A stretch of 64,000 bases of DNA from Comamonadaceae bacterium (lineage in GTDB: Bacteria; Pseudomonadota; Gammaproteobacteria; Burkholderiales; Burkholderiaceae_C): the NCBI GenBank assembly GCA_031421855.1, contig JANOPN010000198.1, positions 2,397-66,396 of the forward strand, given 5' to 3'. The translations under genes and the position numbers were made by a program. Position 1 is the stretch's first letter, and the number at the start of each line of letters is the position of its first letter. The notes under the pieces were generated by a model. It saw only the letters and a list, made by a program, of their open reading frames with translations, searched no databases and was not told where the DNA came from. Below are positions 4,442-63,820 of the stretch, one piece after another.

Positions 4442-4496
4442 CTACTAAATTTATAGCAACAAACTCAATGAATCCGGTGACCAAGGGGCGATATTA
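4442..4496 (+). repeat. Family-A interspersed repeat, copy 1 (core ATAGCAACAAACTCAATGAATCCGGTGACCAAGG at 4453-4486)
   Basis: Fills almost the entire 64-nt murC-ddl gap. Its core is identical to copy 2. The 3' AAGGGG (4483-4488) lies 8 nt upstream of the ddl ATG. Confidence 0.9.
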
Positions 4497-12369: not shown

Positions 12370-12434
12370 TCATATTCATAGCAACAAACTCAATGAATCC
12401 GGTGACCAAGGGCCAAAAAGTCATAAAAATGACC
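12370..12434 (+). repeat. Family-A interspersed repeat, copy 2 (core 12378-12411)
   Basis: 34-nt core identical to copy 1. Tail is GGCCAAAAAGTCATAAAAATGACC. Fills the gap between ruvC and the CdsA-like gene. Confidence 0.9.
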
Positions 12435-14149: not shown

Positions 14150-14212
14150 CAAATTTATTAATATATTGGCTCTTGGTCACCGGATTCATTGACTTCGATG
14201 CTATGAATTTTA
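14150..14212 (-). repeat. Family-A interspersed repeat, copy 3 (core 14172-14204)
   Basis: Reverse complement reads TTCATAGCATCGAAGTCAATGAATCCGGTGACCAAGAGCC. Confidence 0.85.
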
Positions 14213-15927: not shown

Positions 15928-15990
15928 CAATTCATAGCACCAAAATCAATGGAATCGGCGACCAAGGGCCAATAAGTCCGATTTTTTGCG
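15928..15990 (+). repeat. Family-A interspersed repeat, copy 4 (core 15934-15967)
   Basis: TTCATAGCACCAAAATCAATGGAATCGGCGACCAAGGGCCAATAAGTCC. Confidence 0.8.
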
Positions 15991-16010: not shown

Positions 16011-17183
16011 CTACTTGGGCCGAACCTGTTTGGGTCGCGTGCCGGGGCTGAGCTTCAGCTTGAGTTTTTCGCCTTTGCGAAGCACCTCAAACGCAGCCTC
16101 CTCAGCCGGTTTGAGCGCAGCCACTGCGGCCAGCATTTGCGGCACGTTGGCAACCGCACGCCCGGCAACCGCCGTGATCACGTCCCCCGGCTTGACGCCG
16201 CCAATCGCGGCCGGGCCGTTTTGCAACACGCCCGTGATGACCACGCCGGTGTCAACTTTCAAGTCAAAGGTGTCGCGCAGTTCCGCATTGATGTCTTGCG
16301 GCTCCACACCGATGTAGCCGCGCGTGACCGAGCCATCTTTGACCAGGGCATCCATCACTTGCTTGGCCGTGCTGACCGGAATGGCAAACCCGATGCCCAT
16401 GTTGCCGCCCGAGCGGCTGTAAATCGCCGTGTTGATGCCCAGCAATTGCCCCGCTGAGTCAACCAATGCCCCGCCCGAGTTACCGGGGTTGATGGCCGCA
16501 TCGGTTTGAATGAAGTTCTCAAACGTGTTAATGCCCAATTGATTGCGCCCGGTGGCGCTCACAATGCCGCCAGTCACGGTTTGCCCCACCCCAAAAGGGT
16601 TACCAATGGCCAAAACCGGGTCACCAATTTGGAGCGAATCGGAGTTGCCAAAGACGATCACCGGGAGTCGTTCAAGCTCAATCTTCAACAGGGCCAGGTC
16701 ACTGTCGGGGTCGGTGCCGATGACTACTGCCTTGGTGCGGCGGCTGTCGCTCAGCACCACTTCAATCTCGTCGGCTCCTTCAACCACGTGGTTATTGGTC
16801 AACACGTAGCCCGACGCGCTGACAATCACGCCTGAGCCCAAACCTTCTTGTGGGCCTTGGTTGGCGTCGCGCTCACCAAAGAAAAACCGAAACCAGGGCT
16901 CGGCCGAGTTCGGGCCACTGCCCGACCCACGTGACTTGCGCGCTTTGCTGGTGTTGATGCTGACGACCGCGCTAGATGCCCGCTGGGCGGCGAGCCGAAA
17001 CGACCCAGCCGGTGCAGGCACGAGCTCGGTCCCGGTTGGCGCTTGAAGCACCGGCACACCGCTGGTGCTGGGTAACGCTACCGCACCCCGGTTGAGCCAC
17101 TGCGGTTTGAGCGTGGCCACAACGAAATAGCCCGCCAGCAAGACCGTGACAGATTGGGAAAACAGCAACCAAAGTTTTTTCAT
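16011..17183 (-). CDS. Membrane-anchored HtrA-family serine endoprotease with one PDZ domain (DegS/AlgW-like)
   Basis: N-terminal TM, then trypsin-fold motifs TNNHVVEGAD, DLALLKI and GNSGGALVD. A single C-terminal PDZ-like region. Confidence 0.85.
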   Translation of the reverse strand: MKKLWLLFSQSVTVLLAGYFVVATLKPQWLNRGAVALPSTSGVPVLQAPTGTELVPAPAGSFRLAAQRASSAVVSINTSKARKSRGSGSGPNSAEPWFRFFFGERDANQGPQEGLGSGVIVSASGYVLTNNHVVEGADEIEVVLSDSRRTKAVVIGTDPDSDLALLKIELERLPVIVFGNSDSLQIGDPVLAIGNPFGVGQTVTGGIVSATGRNQLGINTFENFIQTDAAINPGNSGGALVDSAGQLLGINTAIYSRSGGNMGIGFAIPVSTAKQVMDALVKDGSVTRGYIGVEPQDINAELRDTFDLKVDTGVVITGVLQNGPAAIGGVKPGDVITAVAGRAVANVPQMLAAVAALKPAEEAAFEVLRKGEKLKLKLSPGTRPKQVRPK

Positions 17184-17184
17184 T

Positions 17185-17286
17185 AGGACTTACGCAAAAT
17201 CGTTCCAGCAAGGCGCAGCGACGACGACAGTGCGGATAGCACGGCTAGGAGCTGCAACGCCGCTGGGGCGGTTTTGCGTAAGTCCT
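17185..17286 (+). repeat. 102-nt long-hairpin element (family B), copy A
   Basis: 15-nt terminal inverted repeat AGGACTTACGCAAAA / TTTTGCGTAAGTCCT. About 93% identical to 28117-28218. Begins 2 nt from the ATG of the DegS-like gene. Confidence 0.9.
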
Positions 17287-17374
17287 GTTCATGTGAGGCA
17301 CACCGGTTCAGTTGGCGAATTGTGTCAGTGAACGAGCCAGCACAGGCCGGCCAAAACAGTCGTTTCGTGTCACT

Positions 17375-17445
17375 TTGAGCATTTTTTGTGAGTTATTGGC
17401 ACTTGGTCTCCGTATCTATTGACTTTGTTGCTATTATTTTTGAAT
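17375..17445 (-). repeat. Family-A interspersed repeat, copy 5 (core 17402-17434)
   Basis: Reverse complement reads TTCAAAAATAATAGCAACAAAGTCAATAGATACGGAGACCAAGTGCCAATAACTC. Confidence 0.85.
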
Positions 17446-17627: not shown

Positions 17628-18305
17628 ATGACCATCACACCGATTCTTCGCTCAACTTCAGTCGTCACGCCCGCTGCGCAAGTGGTCAGCACGGATGCGC
17701 CCAGCCGCGCCGCTCAAAAGGGCACGCAGACCAAAGCGGCCATCATCGATGCTGCTTTGGGGCTGGCCACGCACGTTGGGCTCGAGGGTTTGAGCATTGG
17801 CGCGTTGGCTGAAGTGACGCAAATGAGCAAGTCGGGCGTTTTTGCTCACTTTGGCTCGCGTGAAGAGTTGCAAATCAGCGTGGTGCGCGAATACCACGAC
17901 CGTTTCGAGGCCGAAGTCTTCATTCCGGCGTTGGCCGAAGCCCGTGGCCTGCCGCGCCTACGCAAACTTTTTGATAATTGGATGACCCGTACCTCGATGG
18001 AAATCGACTCCGGTTGCCTCTATATCAGTGGCGCAGTCGAGTTCGACGACCGCCCGGGCCCCGTGCGCGATGCGTTGGCATCCAGCGTTCGCACCTGGTT
18101 GGCGGCGATGCACAAAGCGGTATCGCAAGCGCAATTGCTCGGTCAAATCGACGATGAGACCGATGCACAGCAAATTTTGTTTGAAATCCACGGCCTGATT
18201 TTGGCCCTGCATTTTGACGCGCGATTTCTCAAAACCAGTGGCAGTGCAGCCCGTGCGGTCACGGGTTTTGAACACATCTTGGCCCGATACGGCCGCAACG
18301 ATTGA
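17628..18305 (+). CDS. TetR/AcrR-family transcriptional regulator (head of the beta-oxidation operon)
   Basis: HTH region AIIDAALGLATHVGLEGLSIGALAEVTQMSKSGVFAHFGSREEL. Immediately upstream of an acyl-CoA dehydrogenase. Confidence 0.88.
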   Translation: MTITPILRSTSVVTPAAQVVSTDAPSRAAQKGTQTKAAIIDAALGLATHVGLEGLSIGALAEVTQMSKSGVFAHFGSREELQISVVREYHDRFEAEVFIPALAEARGLPRLRKLFDNWMTRTSMEIDSGCLYISGAVEFDDRPGPVRDALASSVRTWLAAMHKAVSQAQLLGQIDDETDAQQILFEIHGLILALHFDARFLKTSGSAARAVTGFEHILARYGRND

Positions 18306-24344: not shown

Positions 24345-24410
24345 TTTTATGAGAAATTAACCATTGGTCACCGGATTCATTGACTTCTATGCTATTTAAT
24401 TAGTAGCAAA
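24345..24410 (-). repeat. Family-A interspersed repeat, copy 6 (core 24362-24395)
   Basis: Reverse complement reads GCTACTAATTAAATAGCATAGAAGTCAATGAATCCGGTGACCAATGG. Confidence 0.85.
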
Positions 24411-25254: not shown

Positions 25255-25320
25255 CCATTTTGATAGCATCAAACCCAATGAATTCGGTGACCAAAGGCTA
25301 AAAATGCATCAAAATGACCT
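25255..25320 (+). repeat. Family-A interspersed repeat, copy 7 (core 25263-25297)
   Basis: GATAGCATCAAACCCAATGAATTCGGTGACCAAAGGCTAAAAATGCATCAAAATGACC. Its tail contains the SD-like AAAGG and the ATG (25304) of the downstream SDR gene. Confidence 0.85.
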
Positions 25321-26711: not shown

Positions 26712-27482
26712 ATGGCCATGCAAGACATCAAAACCCACATCGAACAAGGCGTTCTCACGCTGACCTTCAACCGCTTAGACAAGAAGAACTCAATCAATGT
26801 GGCCATGTACGCGGCCTTGGCCGAAGCGCTGAGCCAAGCCGTCACTGACCCCGCGATTCGGGTGGTGCTCATCCAGGGCGACGCGACGATTTTCAGCGCT
26901 GGTAACGACATGGGTGACTTTTTAAACAACAAGCCCACGACCACCGAGTCACCTGTGTTTCGGTTTTTGCATGCGCTGGCGCAGTTCCCTAAGCCGTTGA
27001 TCGCGGCGGTTTGCGGGCCTGCGGTCGGCATTGGCACCACCTTGCTGTTTCACTGCGACTTGGTCTACGCGGGGGACAATGCCGCGTTTTCAATGCCTTT
27101 TGTGAACCTTGGTTTGTGCCCCGAAGCCGCCAGCAGCGTGCTCGTGCCGCAAATGCTGGGCTACCACCGCGCCGCAGAAGCGCTGTTGCTGGGTGAGCCG
27201 TTCATGGCAGAAGCTGCCCTTGAGGTCGGCTTGGTCAACCGCGTGCTGGCCCCAACCGAGGCCAACAACTACGCTGCAGGTGTCGCGAAAAAGCTCGCGG
27301 CCAAACCCCTGAGCAGCCTGATCGAGACCAAGCGCCTGATGAAAAAGGGCCAAGCCAAGCTGATCGCCGACGTCATCAACGAGGAAAGCGTCAGTTTTGG
27401 CCGCATGCTGGGCGAGCCGGCAGCCCGAGAAGCCTTGGGGGCATTCATGGAGCGGCGCAAACCCGATTTTTCCAAGGTTTGA
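26712..27482 (+). CDS. Enoyl-CoA hydratase/isomerase (crotonase) family protein
   Basis: LTLTFNRLDKKNS, IFSAGNDMGDF, AAVCGPAVGIGTTLLFHCDLVYA. Confidence 0.88.
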   Translation: MAMQDIKTHIEQGVLTLTFNRLDKKNSINVAMYAALAEALSQAVTDPAIRVVLIQGDATIFSAGNDMGDFLNNKPTTTESPVFRFLHALAQFPKPLIAAVCGPAVGIGTTLLFHCDLVYAGDNAAFSMPFVNLGLCPEAASSVLVPQMLGYHRAAEALLLGEPFMAEAALEVGLVNRVLAPTEANNYAAGVAKKLAAKPLSSLIETKRLMKKGQAKLIADVINEESVSFGRMLGEPAAREALGAFMERRKPDFSKV

Positions 27483-28111
27483 GCAAGGTGTCGAGCCCGC
27501 CAACTCGGCAAATGTCGCTGGCTGAGGCGCAGGCCAGTGGCGAGTTTGTTGCGTTGGCCAGCATCGCAGGCATTCGGGTGGATTTGCGATACGCGAGCCC
27601 GCACAATTTTCTAGGCCGAAACATCTACGGCGACATGGACTGCGCTTGGCTACACCGCGACGCCGCGCTGGCCTTGTCTCGGGCACAAGCGCAACTCAAC
27701 CAACTCGCACCCGGCGCGCAGTTGCTGGTGTTGGACGCGCTTCGACCGCATCGCATCCAAATTGAGCTGTTTGAGAGCCTGCGTGGAACGGGCCTTGAGC
27801 TGTATTTGGCCCCACCTGAGCGAGGCTCGATTCACAGTTTTGGCATGGCGCTTGACGTCACCATCGTCGACGCCAAGGGCTGTGAGGTGGACATGGGCAC
27901 GGGCTTTGATGCCATGGTGTCCGCCTCTCACCCTGAGTTTGAAGCCGCAAGCCTGGCCAGCGGTGAGCTAACCCCGCAACACATTGAGGCGCGTCAACGG
28001 CTGCGGCAAGTCATGACCGGCAATGGCTTTCAGGGCATAAGCACCGAATGGTGGCACTTTGACTGCGGCAACAAAGACCAAATTCGGGCTCAGTACGCTC
28101 GCGTAGACTAA
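27479..28111 (+). CDS. D-alanyl-D-alanine dipeptidase (VanX/DdpX, peptidase M15D)
   Basis: VDLRYASPHNFLG, SIHSFGMALDVTIVD and EWWHFD zinc-site motifs. Start is uncertain: TTG 27479 overlaps the upstream stop, with GTG 27488 and ATG 27512 as alternatives. Confidence 0.85.
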   Translation: MSKVSSPPTRQMSLAEAQASGEFVALASIAGIRVDLRYASPHNFLGRNIYGDMDCAWLHRDAALALSRAQAQLNQLAPGAQLLVLDALRPHRIQIELFESLRGTGLELYLAPPERGSIHSFGMALDVTIVDAKGCEVDMGTGFDAMVSASHPEFEAASLASGELTPQHIEARQRLRQVMTGNGFQGISTEWWHFDCGNKDQIRAQYARVD

Positions 28112-28116
28112 TTAAT

Positions 28117-28218
28117 AGGACTTATGCAAAATTGTCCCAGCAAGGCGCAGCGACGACGACAGTGCGAACAGCACGGCTAGGAGCTGCAACGCGGCTGGGG
28201 TGGTTTTGCGTAAGTCCT
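28117..28218 (+). repeat. 102-nt long-hairpin element (family B), copy B
   Basis: Same architecture as 17185-17286. Lies between the convergent ddpX-like and dacB genes. Followed 3 nt later by family-A copy 8. Confidence 0.9.
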
Positions 28219-28220
28219 AA

Positions 28221-28283
28221 TTAAAATAATAGCAACGAACCCAATAGATCCGGAGACCAAGGGCTGATTTCACTCAAAAAATG
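28221..28283 (+). repeat. Family-A interspersed repeat, copy 8 (core 28229-28262)
   Basis: TTAAAATAATAGCAACGAACCCAATAGATCCGGAGACCAAGGGCTGATTTCACTCAAAAAATG. Ends at the dacB stop codon. Confidence 0.85.
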
Positions 28284-29849
28284 TCAAAAATCAACTTCCA
28301 GACTGATTTTTGAGCCGCGCGACTTCGCCGCCCATTCGATCACTGCGTCCAGCACGGCGCGGGCGGTTTTGCCTTGGACTTTTTCATCGTTGAGCATGGC
28401 CACCACCACCAAGGGCTGGTCGGCTGCATCGCGCACATAGCCGGCCACGGCGTAGGCATTTCTGAGCGTTCCGGTTTTCATGCGGGCGCGCTCTTGGGCT
28501 GCGGTGTTTTTGAGCCGATTGCGCATGGTGCCATCCACCCCCACGATGGGCATGCTGGCTTGCAACTCGGGCGCCCACCGGCTCGCGCCGGCCACTTGCA
28601 AAACCTGGCCGAGCGTGCGGGCGCTGATGCGCTCGCTGCGCGACAAGCCGGAGCCATTGTCCAAAACCAAACCCGTGGTGTCGATTTGGTTGTCAGTCAT
28701 CCAGGCTTTGACGCTGGCTGCCGCCCGGTCGGCTGTGTGGTTCGCCCCCACGGCTGCAGACTGCGTTCCCAACGCCAAAAAGGTCATCCGGGTAATCGGA
28801 TTGTCGCTGATTTTGTTGATCTCGCGCAGCAGTTCAGACAAGGGGCGAGCGCTGCTGCTGGCCAAGATTTGTCCAGCTGGCAAAACCTCTGCGGGTGTCG
28901 CTTCGCGCACCGCGGCAGACCAAACACCGCCCATTTGCCGCCAAAGGCTCGCCAAAAAACCATGGGCAAACCGGGTGCGATCGAGCACGTTGAGCTGGGT
29001 TGATGCCTTGCAGTTGCGCGGAAAAGTGCCCGACAGCTTGACGGTTGCCGTGCCATTGGCTTCAACGACAACGGGCAAAACCCATCCGTTTTCCCAAGAC
29101 GGGCAGCTCGCGTCGATCAATTTGAAGTCACCAGTCAGCGCCACACCGGCAAGCGGCGGATCCATCGCCAAGCTCACGGTCGTCGAGGTCGATTGCAGGC
29201 GAACGCCCATCAAGTTCATGTTGAGCGAAAGTGCATCTGGCACGACGTTGTAGCGAAACTCGGGCGCTTCATCGAAGGGCGTGAGGCCCAAATCGGGCCG
29301 CGTCGGCGAGTAGTGCGAACGATCAATCACGACGGTGCCGCTGATCTCACGCACGCCAGAGTCCATCAAACTCTTGAGCCAACGATTCGTGGCTTCAACA
29401 TTCAACTCGGCATGTCCAACACCACGAATGACCGATGTCCCAGCCAATGCCGTGTTTGAGGCGTCAGCCGCACCCGACAAAGTGCCCCGCCACTCGACAC
29501 GCCCACGATGCAGTGGCCCCAAACGCTCCAAAGCGACCACGGATGTGATCAGTTTCATCGTCGAGCCGGGCTGCATCGGCACGTCCACGTTGTACGACAA
29601 CCTGGCTTGGGCGCGCCGATTGAGCGGTTGCACCAAAATCGACACCGAATTTAATGGTAGTTCAGCAGAGCTAATGAGAGCCAGAACGTCGGGTGGAAGG
29701 GCTGAGTTAGTGCGTGGTTCAGCATGCGACAGGGCCGAATGAGAGGTTGCGCACGCACCCAGTGCGCCAATGGCGGCCAACGCGGCTAAGCCAAACACCA
29801 TCCGGCCAGCACGCAACACAAACCGCCCGATCTGTCGAAGTAAAAACAT
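28284..29849 (-). CDS. dacB: D-alanyl-D-alanine carboxypeptidase/endopeptidase (PBP4, peptidase S13)
   Basis: SxxK (PGSTMKL), SxN (KISDNP) and KTG (RMKTGTL) motifs. Signal-like N-terminus MFLLRQIGRFVLRAGRMVFGLAALAAIGALGACA. ATG 29849 with AGGA 9 nt upstream. Confidence 0.88.
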   Translation of the reverse strand: MFLLRQIGRFVLRAGRMVFGLAALAAIGALGACATSHSALSHAEPRTNSALPPDVLALISSAELPLNSVSILVQPLNRRAQARLSYNVDVPMQPGSTMKLITSVVALERLGPLHRGRVEWRGTLSGAADASNTALAGTSVIRGVGHAELNVEATNRWLKSLMDSGVREISGTVVIDRSHYSPTRPDLGLTPFDEAPEFRYNVVPDALSLNMNLMGVRLQSTSTTVSLAMDPPLAGVALTGDFKLIDASCPSWENGWVLPVVVEANGTATVKLSGTFPRNCKASTQLNVLDRTRFAHGFLASLWRQMGGVWSAAVREATPAEVLPAGQILASSSARPLSELLREINKISDNPITRMTFLALGTQSAAVGANHTADRAAASVKAWMTDNQIDTTGLVLDNGSGLSRSERISARTLGQVLQVAGASRWAPELQASMPIVGVDGTMRNRLKNTAAQERARMKTGTLRNAYAVAGYVRDAADQPLVVVAMLNDEKVQGKTARAVLDAVIEWAAKSRGSKISLEVDF

Positions 29850-30065
29850 CGCTGTCAATCCTGTTGCGCTTACGCCTATCGGGGTAAACATGTGTGAAGA
29901 AATGAACACGTAACATTTCATAATGTAAGTCGTGCCACAAGCGCTGCGCCAATCGCCAAATTGCGACCCACCCGTCCCAATTTGAAGCAAGCGGCAAGGG
30001 AAACCATGAGCCGTTTGGCCCGACCTCCTTTCACATCACCCACTCGACCTCAAGGAAAAGACCAA

Positions 30066-34020: not shown

Positions 34021-34090
34021 TACTATGTTTTTAGTAGCAACAAACTCAATGAATCCGGAGACCAAGTGCCGAAAAATCCTAAAATTCGAT
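34021..34090 (+). repeat. Family-A interspersed repeat, copy 9 (core ~34034-34068)
   Basis: TTTTTAGTAGCAACAAACTCAATGAATCCGGAGACCAAGTGCCGAAAAATCCTAAAATTCG. Lies between the convergent ldcA and AmpH-like genes and overlaps the latter's stop codon. Confidence 0.85.
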
Positions 34091-46875: not shown

Positions 46876-46940
46876 TTCAAAAATAGTAGCAACGAACTCA
46901 ATAGATTTCGAGACCAATGGCCAAAAATCCATCAAAAACA
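46876..46940 (+). repeat. Family-A interspersed repeat, copy 10 (core 46886-46920)
   Basis: TTCAAAAATAGTAGCAACGAACTCAATAGATTTCGAGACCAATGGCCAAAAATCCATCAAAAAC. Confidence 0.85.
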
Positions 46941-47870: not shown

Positions 47871-48629
47871 ATGCCCCGCGACCCTGACCCCGACCTCAAA
47901 CCCGATGCACCCGATGCACCCGATGCACCCGACGAGCCCGCTGTGCCCAGCGCACGCGCCCGGGGACGTCCGCGCAAAACCTTGAGCGAGCGCGACGACG
48001 GCAATCGCCGCATGGGGTTGATTGAGGCAGCAGCCAAATTGTTCCGCCAAAAAGGCTTTGCTGCAACCGCAACCCGAGACATCGCGTCAGCCGTCGGCAT
48101 GCGCAGCGGCAGCCCGTTTTACCACTTCAAAAGCAAAGACGATTTGCTGGCCGCCGTGATGGAACAAGGCATGACAAGGGCCATTGAAAGCCAGCAGTTG
48201 CGACTGAGTTCACTCCTAAATAGTGAGCAACAAACCCAACAGATTCGGAGACCAAGTGCTGATTTCACGTCAAAAGTGCTGCAAATCTTGGTTCGCAACC
48301 ATTTTGAGGTGCTGGTAGGCCCCGGCAGCGACTTCATACCGGTCATGTTGTACGAATGGCGCTCATTGGGCGACGATGCGCGGGCGCGGGTTCAGGCCTT
48401 GCAAACCCAATACGAGGCCGCTTGGCGACCCGTTTTGTCGGTCCTGCACGCCTCGGGGCGGCTGCGCGGGGATGAAAAACTGGCGCGACTGCTCATTTTT
48501 GGCGCCCTGAACTGGACGGCACAGTGGTATCGAATGGGTGATGCAGGCAACCCCGGTGTCGCCACGCTTGACGAGCTTACCGACAGCGCATTGGCCCTGT
48601 TCCTACACGACCTTGCGCCCGCCAAATAG
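47871..48629 (+). CDS. TetR-family transcriptional regulator (AtuR-like position) carrying an in-frame family-A repeat insertion
   Basis: HTH region LIEAAAKLFRQKGFAATATRDIASAVGMRSGSPFYHFKSKDDLL. 252 aa, longer than the usual ~200 aa because of a Pro/Asp-rich N-terminal tail and a ~20-aa insert. Confidence 0.85.
   Translation: MPRDPDPDLKPDAPDAPDAPDEPAVPSARARGRPRKTLSERDDGNRRMGLIEAAAKLFRQKGFAATATRDIASAVGMRSGSPFYHFKSKDDLLAAVMEQGMTRAIESQQLRLSSLLNSEQQTQQIRRPSADFTSKVLQILVRNHFEVLVGPGSDFIPVMLYEWRSLGDDARARVQALQTQYEAAWRPVLSVLHASGRLRGDEKLARLLIFGALNWTAQWYRMGDAGNPGVATLDELTDSALALFLHDLAPAK
47901..47933 (+). repeat. 9-bp tandem repeat CCCGATGCA x3 (plus a partial unit) encoding PDA-PDA-PDA
   Basis: Direct reading. 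Lies in the N-terminal tail of the TetR gene. Confidence 0.9.
48215..48275 (+). repeat. Family-A interspersed repeat, copy 11, inside the TetR CDS (core 48223-48258)
   Basis: AAATAGTGAGCAACAAACCCAACAGATTCGGAGACCAAGTGCTGATTTCACGTCAAAAGTG, translated in frame as NSEQQTQQIRRPSADFTSK. Confidence 0.85.
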
Positions 48630-48653: not shown

Positions 48654-50336
48654 ATGACCGCCAGCTTTCAACCCAGCTTCAACACGTCCAGCCCCACCGC
48701 GCTGGCTCGCGCAACCGCGATGCGCGCCAAGGTCGAGTCGCTCAGGGCGCTAGAGGCCCGCGCGACTTACGAGTCGAGCAAGTCACGCGCGACGTTTGAC
48801 AAGCGCGGCCAGTTGCTGCCGCGTGACCGAGTGGCCTTGCTGATCGATCCGCACACACCGTGGTTGCCACTGATGAGCTTGGTCGGCTACGGGCTTGACG
48901 TGGAAACCAGCAACGACCCTGTCGCCCAGGCCAAGGCCCTGTCGCAGTCGATCCCCGGCGGCGGCATGGTCGCAGGCATTGGATTCATCAGCGGGGTGCG
49001 GTGCATGGTGAGTGCGAGCGACTCCGGCATTGAGGCCGGTGCCATCCAAGCAGGTGGCCTACAAAAAATCCTTCGCGTGCAAGAAATCGCGCTACAAAAC
49101 AAACTGCCATTCATCCATTTGGTTGAAAGCGCAGGGGCCAATTTGCTTCGCTACCGGGTTGATGGCTTTGTGCAAGGCGGCGCACTGTTTCGCAATCTGG
49201 CGCGCTTGTCGGCGGCTGGCATCCCGGTGTTGACGATTCAGCATGGCTCAGGCACAGCAGGCGGCGCGTACATGCCGGGCTTGAGTGACGCGGTGATCAT
49301 GGTCGAGGGGCGATCAAGGGCGTTTTTGGCCGGCCCCCCCTTGCTCAAGGCCGCAACTGGCGAGATTGCAGGAGAGGAAGAGCTGGGCGGCGCATTCATG
49401 CACGCCAGCGTCTCAGGCTTGGGCGAGGCTTTGGTGGCAGACGACCGCGAAGCCATTGGCCTGGCACGTGCCTGGGTGGCTCAATGGGAGCATTTCAAGC
49501 CAAATTTGATGCCAAATATGGCCTTGGTCACCGAATCTATTGAGTTTACTGCTACTAATAGCATAGCAAGTGACGACATGCTCGCGCTGATGCCGTCACA
49601 CTACGCCGAGCCGGTTGACATGCGCGAAGTGATGCATCGGCTGGTTGACTTGCAGCTGTTTGAGTTCAAAGCCCTTTATGGCGCGGCGACCATTTGCGCT
49701 CAAGGCCAGATTGGCGGACACAGCGTGGGCTTCATCAGCAACAACGGCCCAATCGACGTGGCCGGTGCCAACAAGGCCACCCATTTCATCCAGCACATGT
49801 GCCAACTGGGGCACCCCATCATCTACTTGCAAAACACCACCGGCTACATGGTGGGTGTGGCCAGTGAGCAGGCTGGCATGATCAAGCACGGCAGCAAAAT
49901 GATCCAAGCGGTGACGAACGCCAGCGTGCCCCAAATCACCATCCAGTGCGGCGCCAGTTTTGGAGCAGGCAACTACGGCATGTGCGGCCGGGCGTTTGAG
50001 CCCCGTTTTTTGTTCAGCTGGCCCGGCGCACAAACCGCCGTCATGGGCGGTGAGCAAGCGGCTGGCACCATGCGCGAAGTCGTCATGGGCGCGTTTGCCA
50101 AGCGCGGCCTCACCCCAAGCCCCGAGCAAAGCGCGAAATTTGAAGCCCAAGAGCGCGCCATCGTGGCCTTGTTTGCAGCGCAGCAAGATGGGTTTATCAC
50201 CAGCGGCATGGGCTTGGACGACGGCGTGATCGACCCCCGAGACACCCGCGCGACGCTGATCGAATGCTTGGACATGTGCGCCCAGGCCGCCACCCGACAA
50301 CTTCGCCCCACGTCGTTTGGCGTGGCGCGCATGTGA
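48654..50336 (+). CDS. Acyl-CoA carboxylase carboxyltransferase (beta) subunit, methylcrotonyl-/geranyl-CoA carboxylase type, carrying an in-frame family-A repeat insertion
   Basis: Two crotonase-like CT halves: GGMVAGIGFISGV...; NKATHFIQHMCQLGHPIIYLQNTTGYMVG; GASFGAGNYGMCGRAF. 560 aa. Confidence 0.88.
   Translation: MTASFQPSFNTSSPTALARATAMRAKVESLRALEARATYESSKSRATFDKRGQLLPRDRVALLIDPHTPWLPLMSLVGYGLDVETSNDPVAQAKALSQSIPGGGMVAGIGFISGVRCMVSASDSGIEAGAIQAGGLQKILRVQEIALQNKLPFIHLVESAGANLLRYRVDGFVQGGALFRNLARLSAAGIPVLTIQHGSGTAGGAYMPGLSDAVIMVEGRSRAFLAGPPLLKAATGEIAGEEELGGAFMHASVSGLGEALVADDREAIGLARAWVAQWEHFKPNLMPNMALVTESIEFTATNSIASDDMLALMPSHYAEPVDMREVMHRLVDLQLFEFKALYGAATICAQGQIGGHSVGFISNNGPIDVAGANKATHFIQHMCQLGHPIIYLQNTTGYMVGVASEQAGMIKHGSKMIQAVTNASVPQITIQCGASFGAGNYGMCGRAFEPRFLFSWPGAQTAVMGGEQAAGTMREVVMGAFAKRGLTPSPEQSAKFEAQERAIVALFAAQQDGFITSGMGLDDGVIDPRDTRATLIECLDMCAQAATRQLRPTSFGVARM
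49505..49567 (-). repeat. Family-A interspersed repeat, copy 12, inside the carboxyltransferase CDS (core 49522-49556)
   Basis: Plus strand reads GCCTTGGTCACCGAATCTATTGAGTTTACTGCTACTAATAGC, the reverse complement of the family core. Translated in frame as ALVTESIEFTATNS. Confidence 0.85.
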
Positions 50337-54127: not shown

Positions 54128-54192
54128 AGATTTTTAGTGGAAAATCAGCACTTGGTCACCGTATTCATTGGGTTAGTTGCTATTATTTTTGA
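54128..54192 (-). repeat. Family-A interspersed repeat, copy 13 (core 54151-54183)
   Basis: Reverse complement reads ATCAAAAATAATAGCAACTAACCCAATGAATACGGTGACCAAGTGCTGATTTTCCACTAAAAATC. Its A-rich 5' flank holds the last codons and the TAA stop (54183-54185) of atuA. Confidence 0.85.
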
Positions 54193-57172: not shown

Positions 57173-57202
57173 GGGGAAATTTTACGACTTTTTGCCATGA
57201 TA

Positions 57203-57230
57203 TTGGATAAAAGTCGCGACTTTTATCCAA
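57203..57230. promoter_or_regulatory. Perfect 28-bp palindrome TTGGATAAAAGTCG|CGACTTTTATCCAA with extra half-sites at 57236-57249 and ~57184-57197
   Basis: Direct reading. Lies in the 128-bp divergent gap between the AAA ATPase and thioesterase genes. Confidence 0.6.
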
Positions 57231-57300
57231 TTCACTGGATAAAAGTCGCATATTGAGGCTCGTGCCACGCTAAACAACGACTGTCAACGACAATCACCGC

Positions 57301-61179: not shown

Positions 61180-61255
61180 AAATACTATTATTTATGTAGC
61201 AACAAAGTGAATAGATATCGAGACCAAGTGCCAAAAACACCCAATATTTCACTCA
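61180..61255 (+). repeat. Family-A interspersed repeat, copy 14 (core 61196-61230)
   Basis: TATTTATGTAGCAACAAAGTGAATAGATATCGAGACCAAGTGCCAAAAACACCC. Confidence 0.8.
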
Positions 61256-63754: not shown

Positions 63755-63820
63755 CTAAAGATATAGCAACAGATTCAATGAATCCGTTGACCAAGTGCCG
63801 AAAAGTCATTATTTTTTGTC
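63755..63820 (+). repeat. Family-A interspersed repeat, copy 15 (core 63763-63796)
   Basis: AAGATATAGCAACAGATTCAATGAATCCGTTGACCAAGTGCCGAAAAGTCATTATTTTTT. Confidence 0.85.

Follow-up and report, generated by a model that had tools for sequence, protein, structure and literature searches.

A repeated hairpin of 104 bp in a Comamonadaceae genome as a probable MITE with ends of the ISAba11/ISPlag1 group

Two intergenic regions in the genome of a Comamonadaceae bacterium (GenBank assembly GCA_031421855.1, contig JANOPN010000198.1) carry nearly the same long hairpin, raising the question of whether the repeat is kept for an RNA that it encodes or was left there by a mobile DNA. The stretch analysed, referred to here as the window, is 64,000 nucleotides (64 kb) long. 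A preliminary description, made from its letters, proposed a mobile or duplicated element whose structure is selected in the RNA of one orientation, such as an sRNA or a retro-mobile RNA. Its starting observation, of two 102-nt copies that differ at seven positions and both lie on the plus strand, is reproduced by alignment of 17185-17286 with 28117-28218 (7/102). In this article, we describe the boundaries of the two copies, their relatives and probable source of mobility, and the extent to which their fold is conserved.

Alignment of the copies together with their flanks shows that the similarity ends at AGG...CCT, save for one further base on each side. The true length of the element is 104 bp, the core plus one base per side (Y-AGGACTTACGCAAAA...TTTTGCGTAAGTCCT-R), and each copy is enclosed by a perfect 5-bp target-site duplication, giving TTCAT|T-AGG...CCT-G|TTCAT for copy A and ATTAA|T-AGG...CCT-A|ATTAA for copy B (Table 1); neither the duplications nor the 104-nt length appeared in the preliminary description. 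Direct repeats of constant length that enclose an element with inverted ends are the trace left by DNA transposition, whether cut-and-paste or copy-and-paste. The terminal inverted repeats AGGACTTACGCAAAA / TTTTGCGTAAGTCCT are perfect over 15 bp and conserved in at least 90% of the 93 family sequences described below, and in copy A they reach about 25 bp when three T.G positions are counted as paired. The element has no coding capacity, its reading frames being limited to an accidental one of 15 codons that opens at a duplicated ATG. Within the window, a family profile (nhmmer) recovered copies A and B only (E=1.8e-29 and 1.2e-28), while a mismatch-tolerant search with the terminal 15-mer returned the four ends of the two copies and one chance match within a gene.

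Table 1. Positions of the elements, genes and repeats discussed in the text. Positions refer to the 64-kb window, except where a locus label (L) is given; (-) marks copies on the minus strand.
Feature	Position	Strand	Length	Remarks
Copy A (probable MITE)	17184..17287	+	104 bp	T + AGGACTTACGCAAAA...TTTTGCGTAAGTCCT + G
Copy B (probable MITE)	28116..28219	+	104 bp	T + AGGACTTATGCAAAA...TTTTGCGTAAGTCCT + A
Copy A, left target-site duplication	17179..17183			TTCAT, read from sequence
Copy A, right target-site duplication	17288..17292			TTCAT, read from sequence
Copy B, left target-site duplication	28111..28115			ATTAA, read from sequence
Copy B, right target-site duplication	28220..28224			ATTAA, read from sequence
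DegQ/HtrA-like protease gene	16011-17183	-		flanks copy A
TetR-like regulator gene	17628-18305	+		flanks copy A
D-Ala-D-Ala dipeptidase gene	27479-28111	+		flanks copy B
PBP4-type carboxypeptidase gene	28284-29990	-		flanks copy B
Dense repeat	4454-4489; 12379-12414; 14168-14203(-); 15935-15970; 17398-17433(-); 24359-24394(-); 25264-25299; 28230-28265; 34035-34070; 46887-46922; 48225-48260; 49519-49554(-); 54147-54182(-); 61197-61232; 63764-63799		36 nt	core TAGCAACAAACTCAATGAATCCGGTGACCAAGGGCC
Near-perfect palindrome	57185-57248		64 nt	CGACTTTTTGCCATGATATTGGATAAAAGTCG / CGACTTTTATCCAATTCACTGGATAAAAGTCG
Short tandem array	47896-47944			9-nt unit ATGCACCCG
Internal-deletion derivatives of the family	L133 832-897; L155; L226; L237		66 nt	AGGACTTACGCAAAATTGTCCCAGCAAGGCGGCGCAACGCCGCTGGGGCGGTTTTGCGTAAGTCCT
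Family copies with nested insertions	L100 6963-7156; L077 2250-2517; L127/L195; L237 721-			L127/L195, about 180 nt
Examples of small elements with the same termini	L042 2416-2506; L016 4317-4408; L040 5115-5205 and 7793-7882; L037 5066-5207

The hairpin itself had been described from the letters, and folding reproduces it: the 15-bp outer stem, the adjoining 10-bp stem with its three (copy A) or four (copy B) G.U pairs and the apical GUGC/GCAC stem with loops GGAUA and GAACA are all recovered. Predicted free energies in plus-strand RNA are -63.1 kcal/mol for copy A (z = -9.9) and -54.8 kcal/mol for copy B (z = -6.7), against -51.8 and -43.2 kcal/mol in minus-strand RNA, and all four folds lie far lower than those of shuffled controls. 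Relative to the family consensus, copy A has one derived T-to-C change and copy B two derived C-to-T changes and one pair-breaking C-to-G change. Because the two copies are mutual closest relatives and have in common a rare form of the apical stem, amplification within this lineage is their probable origin.

Relatives were collected by two scans, in which the terminal 15-mer was run against a species-representative genome collection and a family-specific left-end pattern against metagenomes; each yielded at least 120 loci. The further copies that the preliminary description had proposed to look for proved plentiful in public genomes and metagenomes: at least 132 two-ended copies were found in at least 240 loci, comprising 93 distinct sequences and having a modal AGG...CCT core length of 101-102 nt. 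Named hosts include several Undibacterium species, other Burkholderiales MAGs, a Halothiobacillus MAG and a gammaproteobacterial MAG. The search for target-site duplications, also proposed there, gave an equally positive answer. Besides both copies in the window, 68 of the 111 unique insertion sites of the family show perfect 5-bp duplications when read in the 104-nt register, and at 17 others the two repeats differ by a single mismatch, whereas the control registers gave 0/111 perfect duplications directly adjacent to AGG...CCT and 3/111 one further base outward. The extra terminal bases are T...A at 66 of these 111 sites and C...A at 29. Target 5-mers are A+T-rich, and the insertions, spread over many genomes, are mostly intergenic. 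No description of this family was found in the literature searched.

Variants of the element also occur. Internal-deletion derivatives of 66 nt have neither the inner helix nor the apical stem, and some family copies have other short palindromic sequences nested in their interior (Table 1). One Halothiobacillus copy (L028 4545-4665) is flanked by inverted symmetry that continues for about 10 nt past its ends (ggaataatc...gattatttcc) without a direct repeat, and may have been inserted into a pre-existing palindrome. Four family copies lie on three contigs (L001, L055 and L117) labelled 'MAG: Klebsiella pneumoniae isolate LH-02apr19-16'; this bin label, being out of line with the Burkholderiales and Halothiobacillus hosts, may be wrong.

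The termini of the family are also those of complete insertion sequences. Plasmid pBN3 of Paraburkholderia aromaticivorans (L243) carries an intact insertion sequence of 1122 bp, ACCTC|T-AGGACTTACGCAAAA...TTTTGCGTAAGTCCT-A|ACCTC, whose intact transposase of 339 aa scores 412 bits against the NCBIfam model NF049921, 'IS701 family transposase' (cut-off 250). The same ends occur in an ISAba11-like element of A. baumannii (L244; AAGGT duplication) and in an insertion sequence of Moraxella (L245; GAATA duplication). A Roseateles MAG (L093) contains a 1104-bp element, TAGGACTTACGCAAAAC...TTTGCGTAAGTCCTA, with a frameshifted transposase gene, the two halves of which score 204 and 137 bits against the same model. 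When its protein was compared with a plasmid collection by tblastn, relatives were found in Paraburkholderia, Moraxella, 117 Acinetobacter records, Planktothrix and Nostoc, the Planktothrix match being annotated 'IS701-like element ISPlag1 family transposase'. ISPlag1 of Planktothrix is 1306 bp long, belongs to the IS701 group and has the terminal inverted repeat CAGGACTTACGCAAGC... / CAGGACTTACGCAAGCACGC... (PMC2464740).

Compared with these elements, the termini of the window family are identical over 16 nt to those of the Paraburkholderia insertion sequence and over 12-13 nt to those of the A. baumannii and Moraxella elements and published ISPlag1. The duplication is 5 bp long in L243, L244 and L245, as it is in the window family; since the texts searched gave no target-duplication length for the IS701 family, these three elements served for its measurement. 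With the same ends, the same duplication length and the same extra flanking base, the 104-nt element matches the ISAba11/ISPlag1 group. The two have in common the termini (T/C)AGGACTTACGCA...TGCGTAAGTCCT(A/G), the 5-bp duplication and its register, and an occurrence in the orders Burkholderiales and Moraxellales and in cyanobacteria. They differ in that the element in the window is 104 bp long and has no transposase gene, and its sequence is unrelated to that of the insertion sequences examined past about 15 nt from each end. Among the loci collected, there was no full-length insertion sequence with the family's own subterminal sequence (TTGTCCCAGCAAGGC). Nineteen left ends that lacked a nearby right end were considered as parent insertion sequences and rejected as contig ends, 66-nt derivatives or copies with nested insertions; a further candidate (L057), with ends 2.7 kb apart, has ordinary genes between them, and each end belongs to a small element of its own. 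A MITE with a partner transposase elsewhere in the genome had been named in the preliminary description as an outcome that would speak against its RNA-level reading, and such a partner has essentially been found, albeit only in other genomes: tblastn detected no IS701-family transposase in the 64-kb window.

Bacterial MITEs, which have no coding capacity and measure about 50-600 bp, include the Correia elements of Neisseria, ERIC of the enterobacteria and RUP of the pneumococcus. The element described here is likewise short and non-coding, with terminal inverted repeats, a duplication of fixed length and multiple copies dispersed over unrelated sites, and copy A has no counterpart in two fairly distant relatives. 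Copies A and B are thus very probably insertions of a 104-bp non-autonomous MITE, the ends of which match the terminal repeats recognized by DDE transposases of the ISAba11/ISPlag1 group. The combination of inverted repeats, 5-bp duplications and IS701-type ends points to a MITE mobilized in trans rather than to a retro-element or an sRNA gene; the mobile element of the preliminary description, with its inverted termini, duplications and copies over many genomes, therefore stands, and the sRNA gene or retro-mobile RNA is set aside. A group II intron, retron or DGR is likewise unsupported: there was no intron or retron match in Rfam, the inverted repeats and the 5-bp duplication indicate DDE transposition, and no sign of reverse transcription was noted. 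The Rfam search that had been suggested for an RNA family gave nothing meaningful at either threshold, with no match in the whole window at gathering thresholds and chance-level matches only around both copies at E up to 10.

That the 104-bp element transposes is something we infer from these footprints. In the likely course of events, a full-length insertion sequence would provide the transposase in trans, and this enzyme would bind both ends of the element, excise or copy it and insert it elsewhere with a 5-bp staggered cut. The supplying insertion sequence might be located elsewhere in this genome, or might have existed only in the past.

Among described elements, MaeMITEa-h of Microcystis are similarly shorter than 300 bp, non-coding and equipped with terminal inverted repeats and target-site duplications (PMC2779907). 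Like bacterial MITEs in general, the window family is multi-copy and intergenic and forms a hairpin in RNA if co-transcribed. It is distinguished from them by its transposase family and ends, and by an architecture in which a single, almost uninterrupted hairpin spans the whole element, its internal loops conserved and its inner helix hypervariable but complementary.

The window family does not stand alone. Many loci (L003-L120) carry dozens of small elements of 88-270 nt that have the same 12-nt termini, AGGACTTACGCA...TGCGTAAGTCCT, around interiors unrelated to one another and to that of the window family (examples in Table 1). Of 70 such elements among the matches listed, 46 are enclosed by 5-bp duplications that are perfect and in the same register. 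Their hosts are mostly Nostocales and other cyanobacteria (Nostoc, Calothrix and Trichodesmium), but they also occur in Poribacteria, Chloroflexota, Legionellaceae and others. These small elements are independent MITE families, presumably mobilized by the same transposase group, and the window family appears to be one among many that use it. Judged from their shared ends and duplications, they form a phylum-spanning MITE superfamily tied to one group of insertion sequences.

Mobility leaves the regularity of the hairpin to be considered. For this purpose, the 93 distinct sequences were compared over a structure of 40 pairs, obtained by mapping the fold of the consensus sequence onto the alignment and counting pairs, RNAalifold having given a fragmented consensus. 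Standard pairs fill 93.7% of cells, compared with 90.0% in shuffles and 28-43% when the partners are slid. Changes on both sides affect 14 of the 40 pairs (8.8 in shuffles) and 144 cells (40.1 in shuffles), and the structure is accordingly under some constraint beyond chance, as had been proposed. Nearly all of the covariation lies in the inner helix (columns 31-39/68-76), where seven of eight pairs covary and where versions as different as GCGCCG/CGGCGC, GCGCTGCC/GGCAGCGC, GTGTTGCC/GGCAACAC, GCCCAGCC/GGCTGGGC, GTCGCG/CGCGAC, ATGGC/GCCAT and GCTCT/AGAGC are found. Conserved in sequence, on the other hand, are the terminal 25 nt, the AAC bulge, the asymmetric internal loop with its sides ACGMAGRCA and GRCWAGG, and the apical GUAC/GUAC stem, of which the GUGC/GCAC form, present in 6 of the 93 sequences and carried by both window copies, is a rarer compensated version.

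Compensation of this kind might also come from a mutational process acting on the DNA, with no selection on the fold. Template switching in quasi-palindromes at replication, or mismatch correction in extruded hairpins, would copy one arm onto the other; long near-perfect palindromes are established substrates of template-switch mutation, and many of the double changes are exact complements, transversions included, such as the change of C-G to G-C at pair 35-72 in 25 sequences. Efficient homogenization of the arms is argued against by three T.G wobbles, the AAC bulge and the asymmetric internal loop, which persist in more than 80% of copies across many genomes. The placement of the changes bears on the same point. 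Parsimony on a neighbour-joining tree gives 24 double events (Watson-Crick to Watson-Crick), and these are enriched on internal branches, with 14 double against 31 single changes there and 10 against 124 on terminal branches (Fisher p=2e-4), rather than being spread evenly over all copies. Selection among propagating lineages fits this distribution better than does a constant mutational process, and we regard an origin of the complementarity by arm-to-arm copying as extremely improbable.

On terminal branches, pair-breaking changes (78, made up of 32 A.C and 46 other mismatches) outnumber the 46 changes to G.U. We infer that single insertions decay roughly neutrally, while the lineages that kept multiplying retained the fold. 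Selection of the ability to fold back, acting on how the element itself propagates, is the most likely explanation, and a host RNA function selected at each locus is less likely. The standard MITE model, in which a DDE transposase requires nothing beyond the terminal repeats, leaves both the compensatory inner helix and the conserved internal loops unexplained. Speculatively, folding might help to bring together the two ends of a very short and stiff DNA.

The preliminary description had gone further and held that pairing is kept only for a plus-strand RNA. Under this reading, selection would act on the RNA copied from the plus strand of the MITE, either an sRNA or a structured cis-acting module serving as a stabilizer, a processing site or a modulator of translation, and this would account for the G.U-rich stem, in which a minus-strand RNA would have mismatches. 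Several counts across the family lean this way. The plus-strand RNA fold is the more stable in 87 of 93 copies (mean -57.9 vs -50.2 kcal/mol); G.U cells number 329 and A.C cells 50; conserved internal-loop sequence sits beside covarying helices. Among new changes from Watson-Crick pairs, 62 gave G.U and 38 gave A.C (binomial p about 0.02), the ratio being 16:6 on internal branches (p=0.05), and stems differ from unpaired columns (Fisher p=0.008), a contrast that rests on few, poorly alignable loop columns.

Much of this asymmetry is nevertheless inherited. Four wobble positions (16-95, 17-94, 19-92 and 20-91), which represent one or a few ancestral events, account for 253 of the 329 G.U cells, and as either transition from U.G gives a Watson-Crick pair, the turnover of wobbles looks neutral and carries no information. 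On terminal branches, the ratio of G.U to A.C falls to 46:32 (p=0.14), with pair-breaking changes in the majority as noted above, and 55 other mismatches, by transversion, also arose newly from Watson-Crick pairs. Counted by pair, G.U cells are more numerous in 20 pairs and A.C cells in 14; at the level of single nucleotides in paired columns, C>U plus A>G changes number 82 and G>A plus U>C changes 95. The four pair-preserving differences between the window copies are all C/T rather than G/A on the plus strand, a pattern with a chance of roughly 1 in 8 when the strand is picked afterwards. Moreover, G.T is also the least destabilizing mismatch in single-stranded DNA, so that even a true asymmetry would not single out RNA.

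The surroundings of the copies do not favour a plus-strand product either. An orientation bias would be expected of a cis-acting module in plus-strand RNA, and the family counts speak against one: in tandem gene contexts, called by a simple longest-ORF heuristic, the plus strand is co-oriented with the genes in 26 cases and opposed in 28, with 16 convergent and 14 divergent contexts besides. Consensus scans detected neither a sigma-70-like promoter in the element nor an intrinsic terminator within or at it, there being no U-tract after the hairpin; nor, as described above, does it belong to an Rfam family. The 62:38 excess is modest, and selection on the plus strand alone is not established; what is left of the claim is a weak hint that the element acts as a plus-strand RNA, and a transcript as the selected product is very unlikely. 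A related reading would make the interior of the MITE a structured nucleic-acid module, either plus-strand RNA or single-stranded DNA, composed of the asymmetric internal loop, the AAC bulge, the hypervariable complementary helix and the GUAC/GUAC apical stem, and held under strand-specific selection because it is needed for mobilization by, or regulation of, the IS701-family transposase. If true, it would reveal an unrecognized requirement for a DDE-type MITE, but we consider it improbable. For a MITE selected for folding back during its own propagation, any effect on transcripts may be a side effect: co-transcription with neighbouring genes in either orientation would give an RNA with a strong stem-loop, which may change the stability or translation of the mRNA.

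Such effects can be considered at the two sites in the window, whose contexts were read correctly from the start: copy A lies between the divergent genes for a DegQ/HtrA-like protease and a TetR-like regulator, and copy B between the convergent genes for a D-Ala-D-Ala dipeptidase and a PBP4-type carboxypeptidase (Table 1). The target 5-mer of copy A reads ATGAA on the minus strand and includes the start codon of the DegQ-like gene. This ATG was regenerated by the duplication and is now separated by a single base from the hairpin, which precedes it with about -52 kcal/mol in minus-strand RNA. The right-hand TTCAT supplies a second ATG on the minus strand, opening the 15-codon frame (ATG AAC AGG ACT TAC GCA AAA CCG CCC CAG CGG CGT TGC AGC TCC TAG) that runs into the MITE and ends inside it; the former leader of the DegQ-like gene, cut off by copy A, now precedes this duplicate ATG. 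For copy B, the footprint begins within the stop codon of the dipeptidase gene, as the last base of TAA is also the first base of the duplication. To judge from these positions, the expression of the genes next to copies A and B may be affected.

An empty counterpart of the copy A site was sought in relatives of the DegQ-like protein, the closest of which, apart from one identical entry, are 78% and 77% identical, followed by others at about 70% (Rhodoferax, Hylemonella or Comamonadaceae); these distances mark the host as a Comamonadaceae-like member of the Burkholderiales that has been little sampled. In the nearest two (L241 and L242), the start ATGAAAAAACTTTGG (or ATGAAACGACTTTGG) is kept and no MITE lies upstream of the orthologous gene, a comparison that involves fairly distant relatives (about 78% protein identity) and not strains.

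The window contains other repeats. A dense repeat of 36 nt is present in fifteen copies in both orientations (Table 1), twelve of which fill short intergenic spacers, while three (46887, 48225 and 49519) fall within heuristic ORF calls; one copy adjoins MITE copy B, and copy A has another at a distance of about 110 nt. This repeat has no consensus secondary structure and no Rfam match, and it is absent from the other loci collected, save for one diverged copy in the relative L241, where it lies upstream of the DegQ-like gene in the orthologous position. It is possibly a lineage-specific protein-binding or REP-like intergenic motif. In addition, there are a near-perfect palindrome of 64 nt with adjoining arms that are 81% complementary, and a short tandem array of about 4-5 copies of a 9-nt unit.

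A candidate structured RNA repeat is in this way very probably explained as a miniature transposon whose transposase family can be identified. The AGGACTTACGCA termini together with the 5-bp duplication provide an annotation signature for a very widespread superfamily of MITEs in Burkholderiales, Gammaproteobacteria, cyanobacteria, Poribacteria, Chloroflexota and others, usable for masking MITEs or for tracing the activity of the IS701 group. The one non-routine feature of this MITE is the compensatory maintenance of its inner helix, and its concentration in propagating lineages hints that folding back matters to the mobility of very short DDE-dependent elements.
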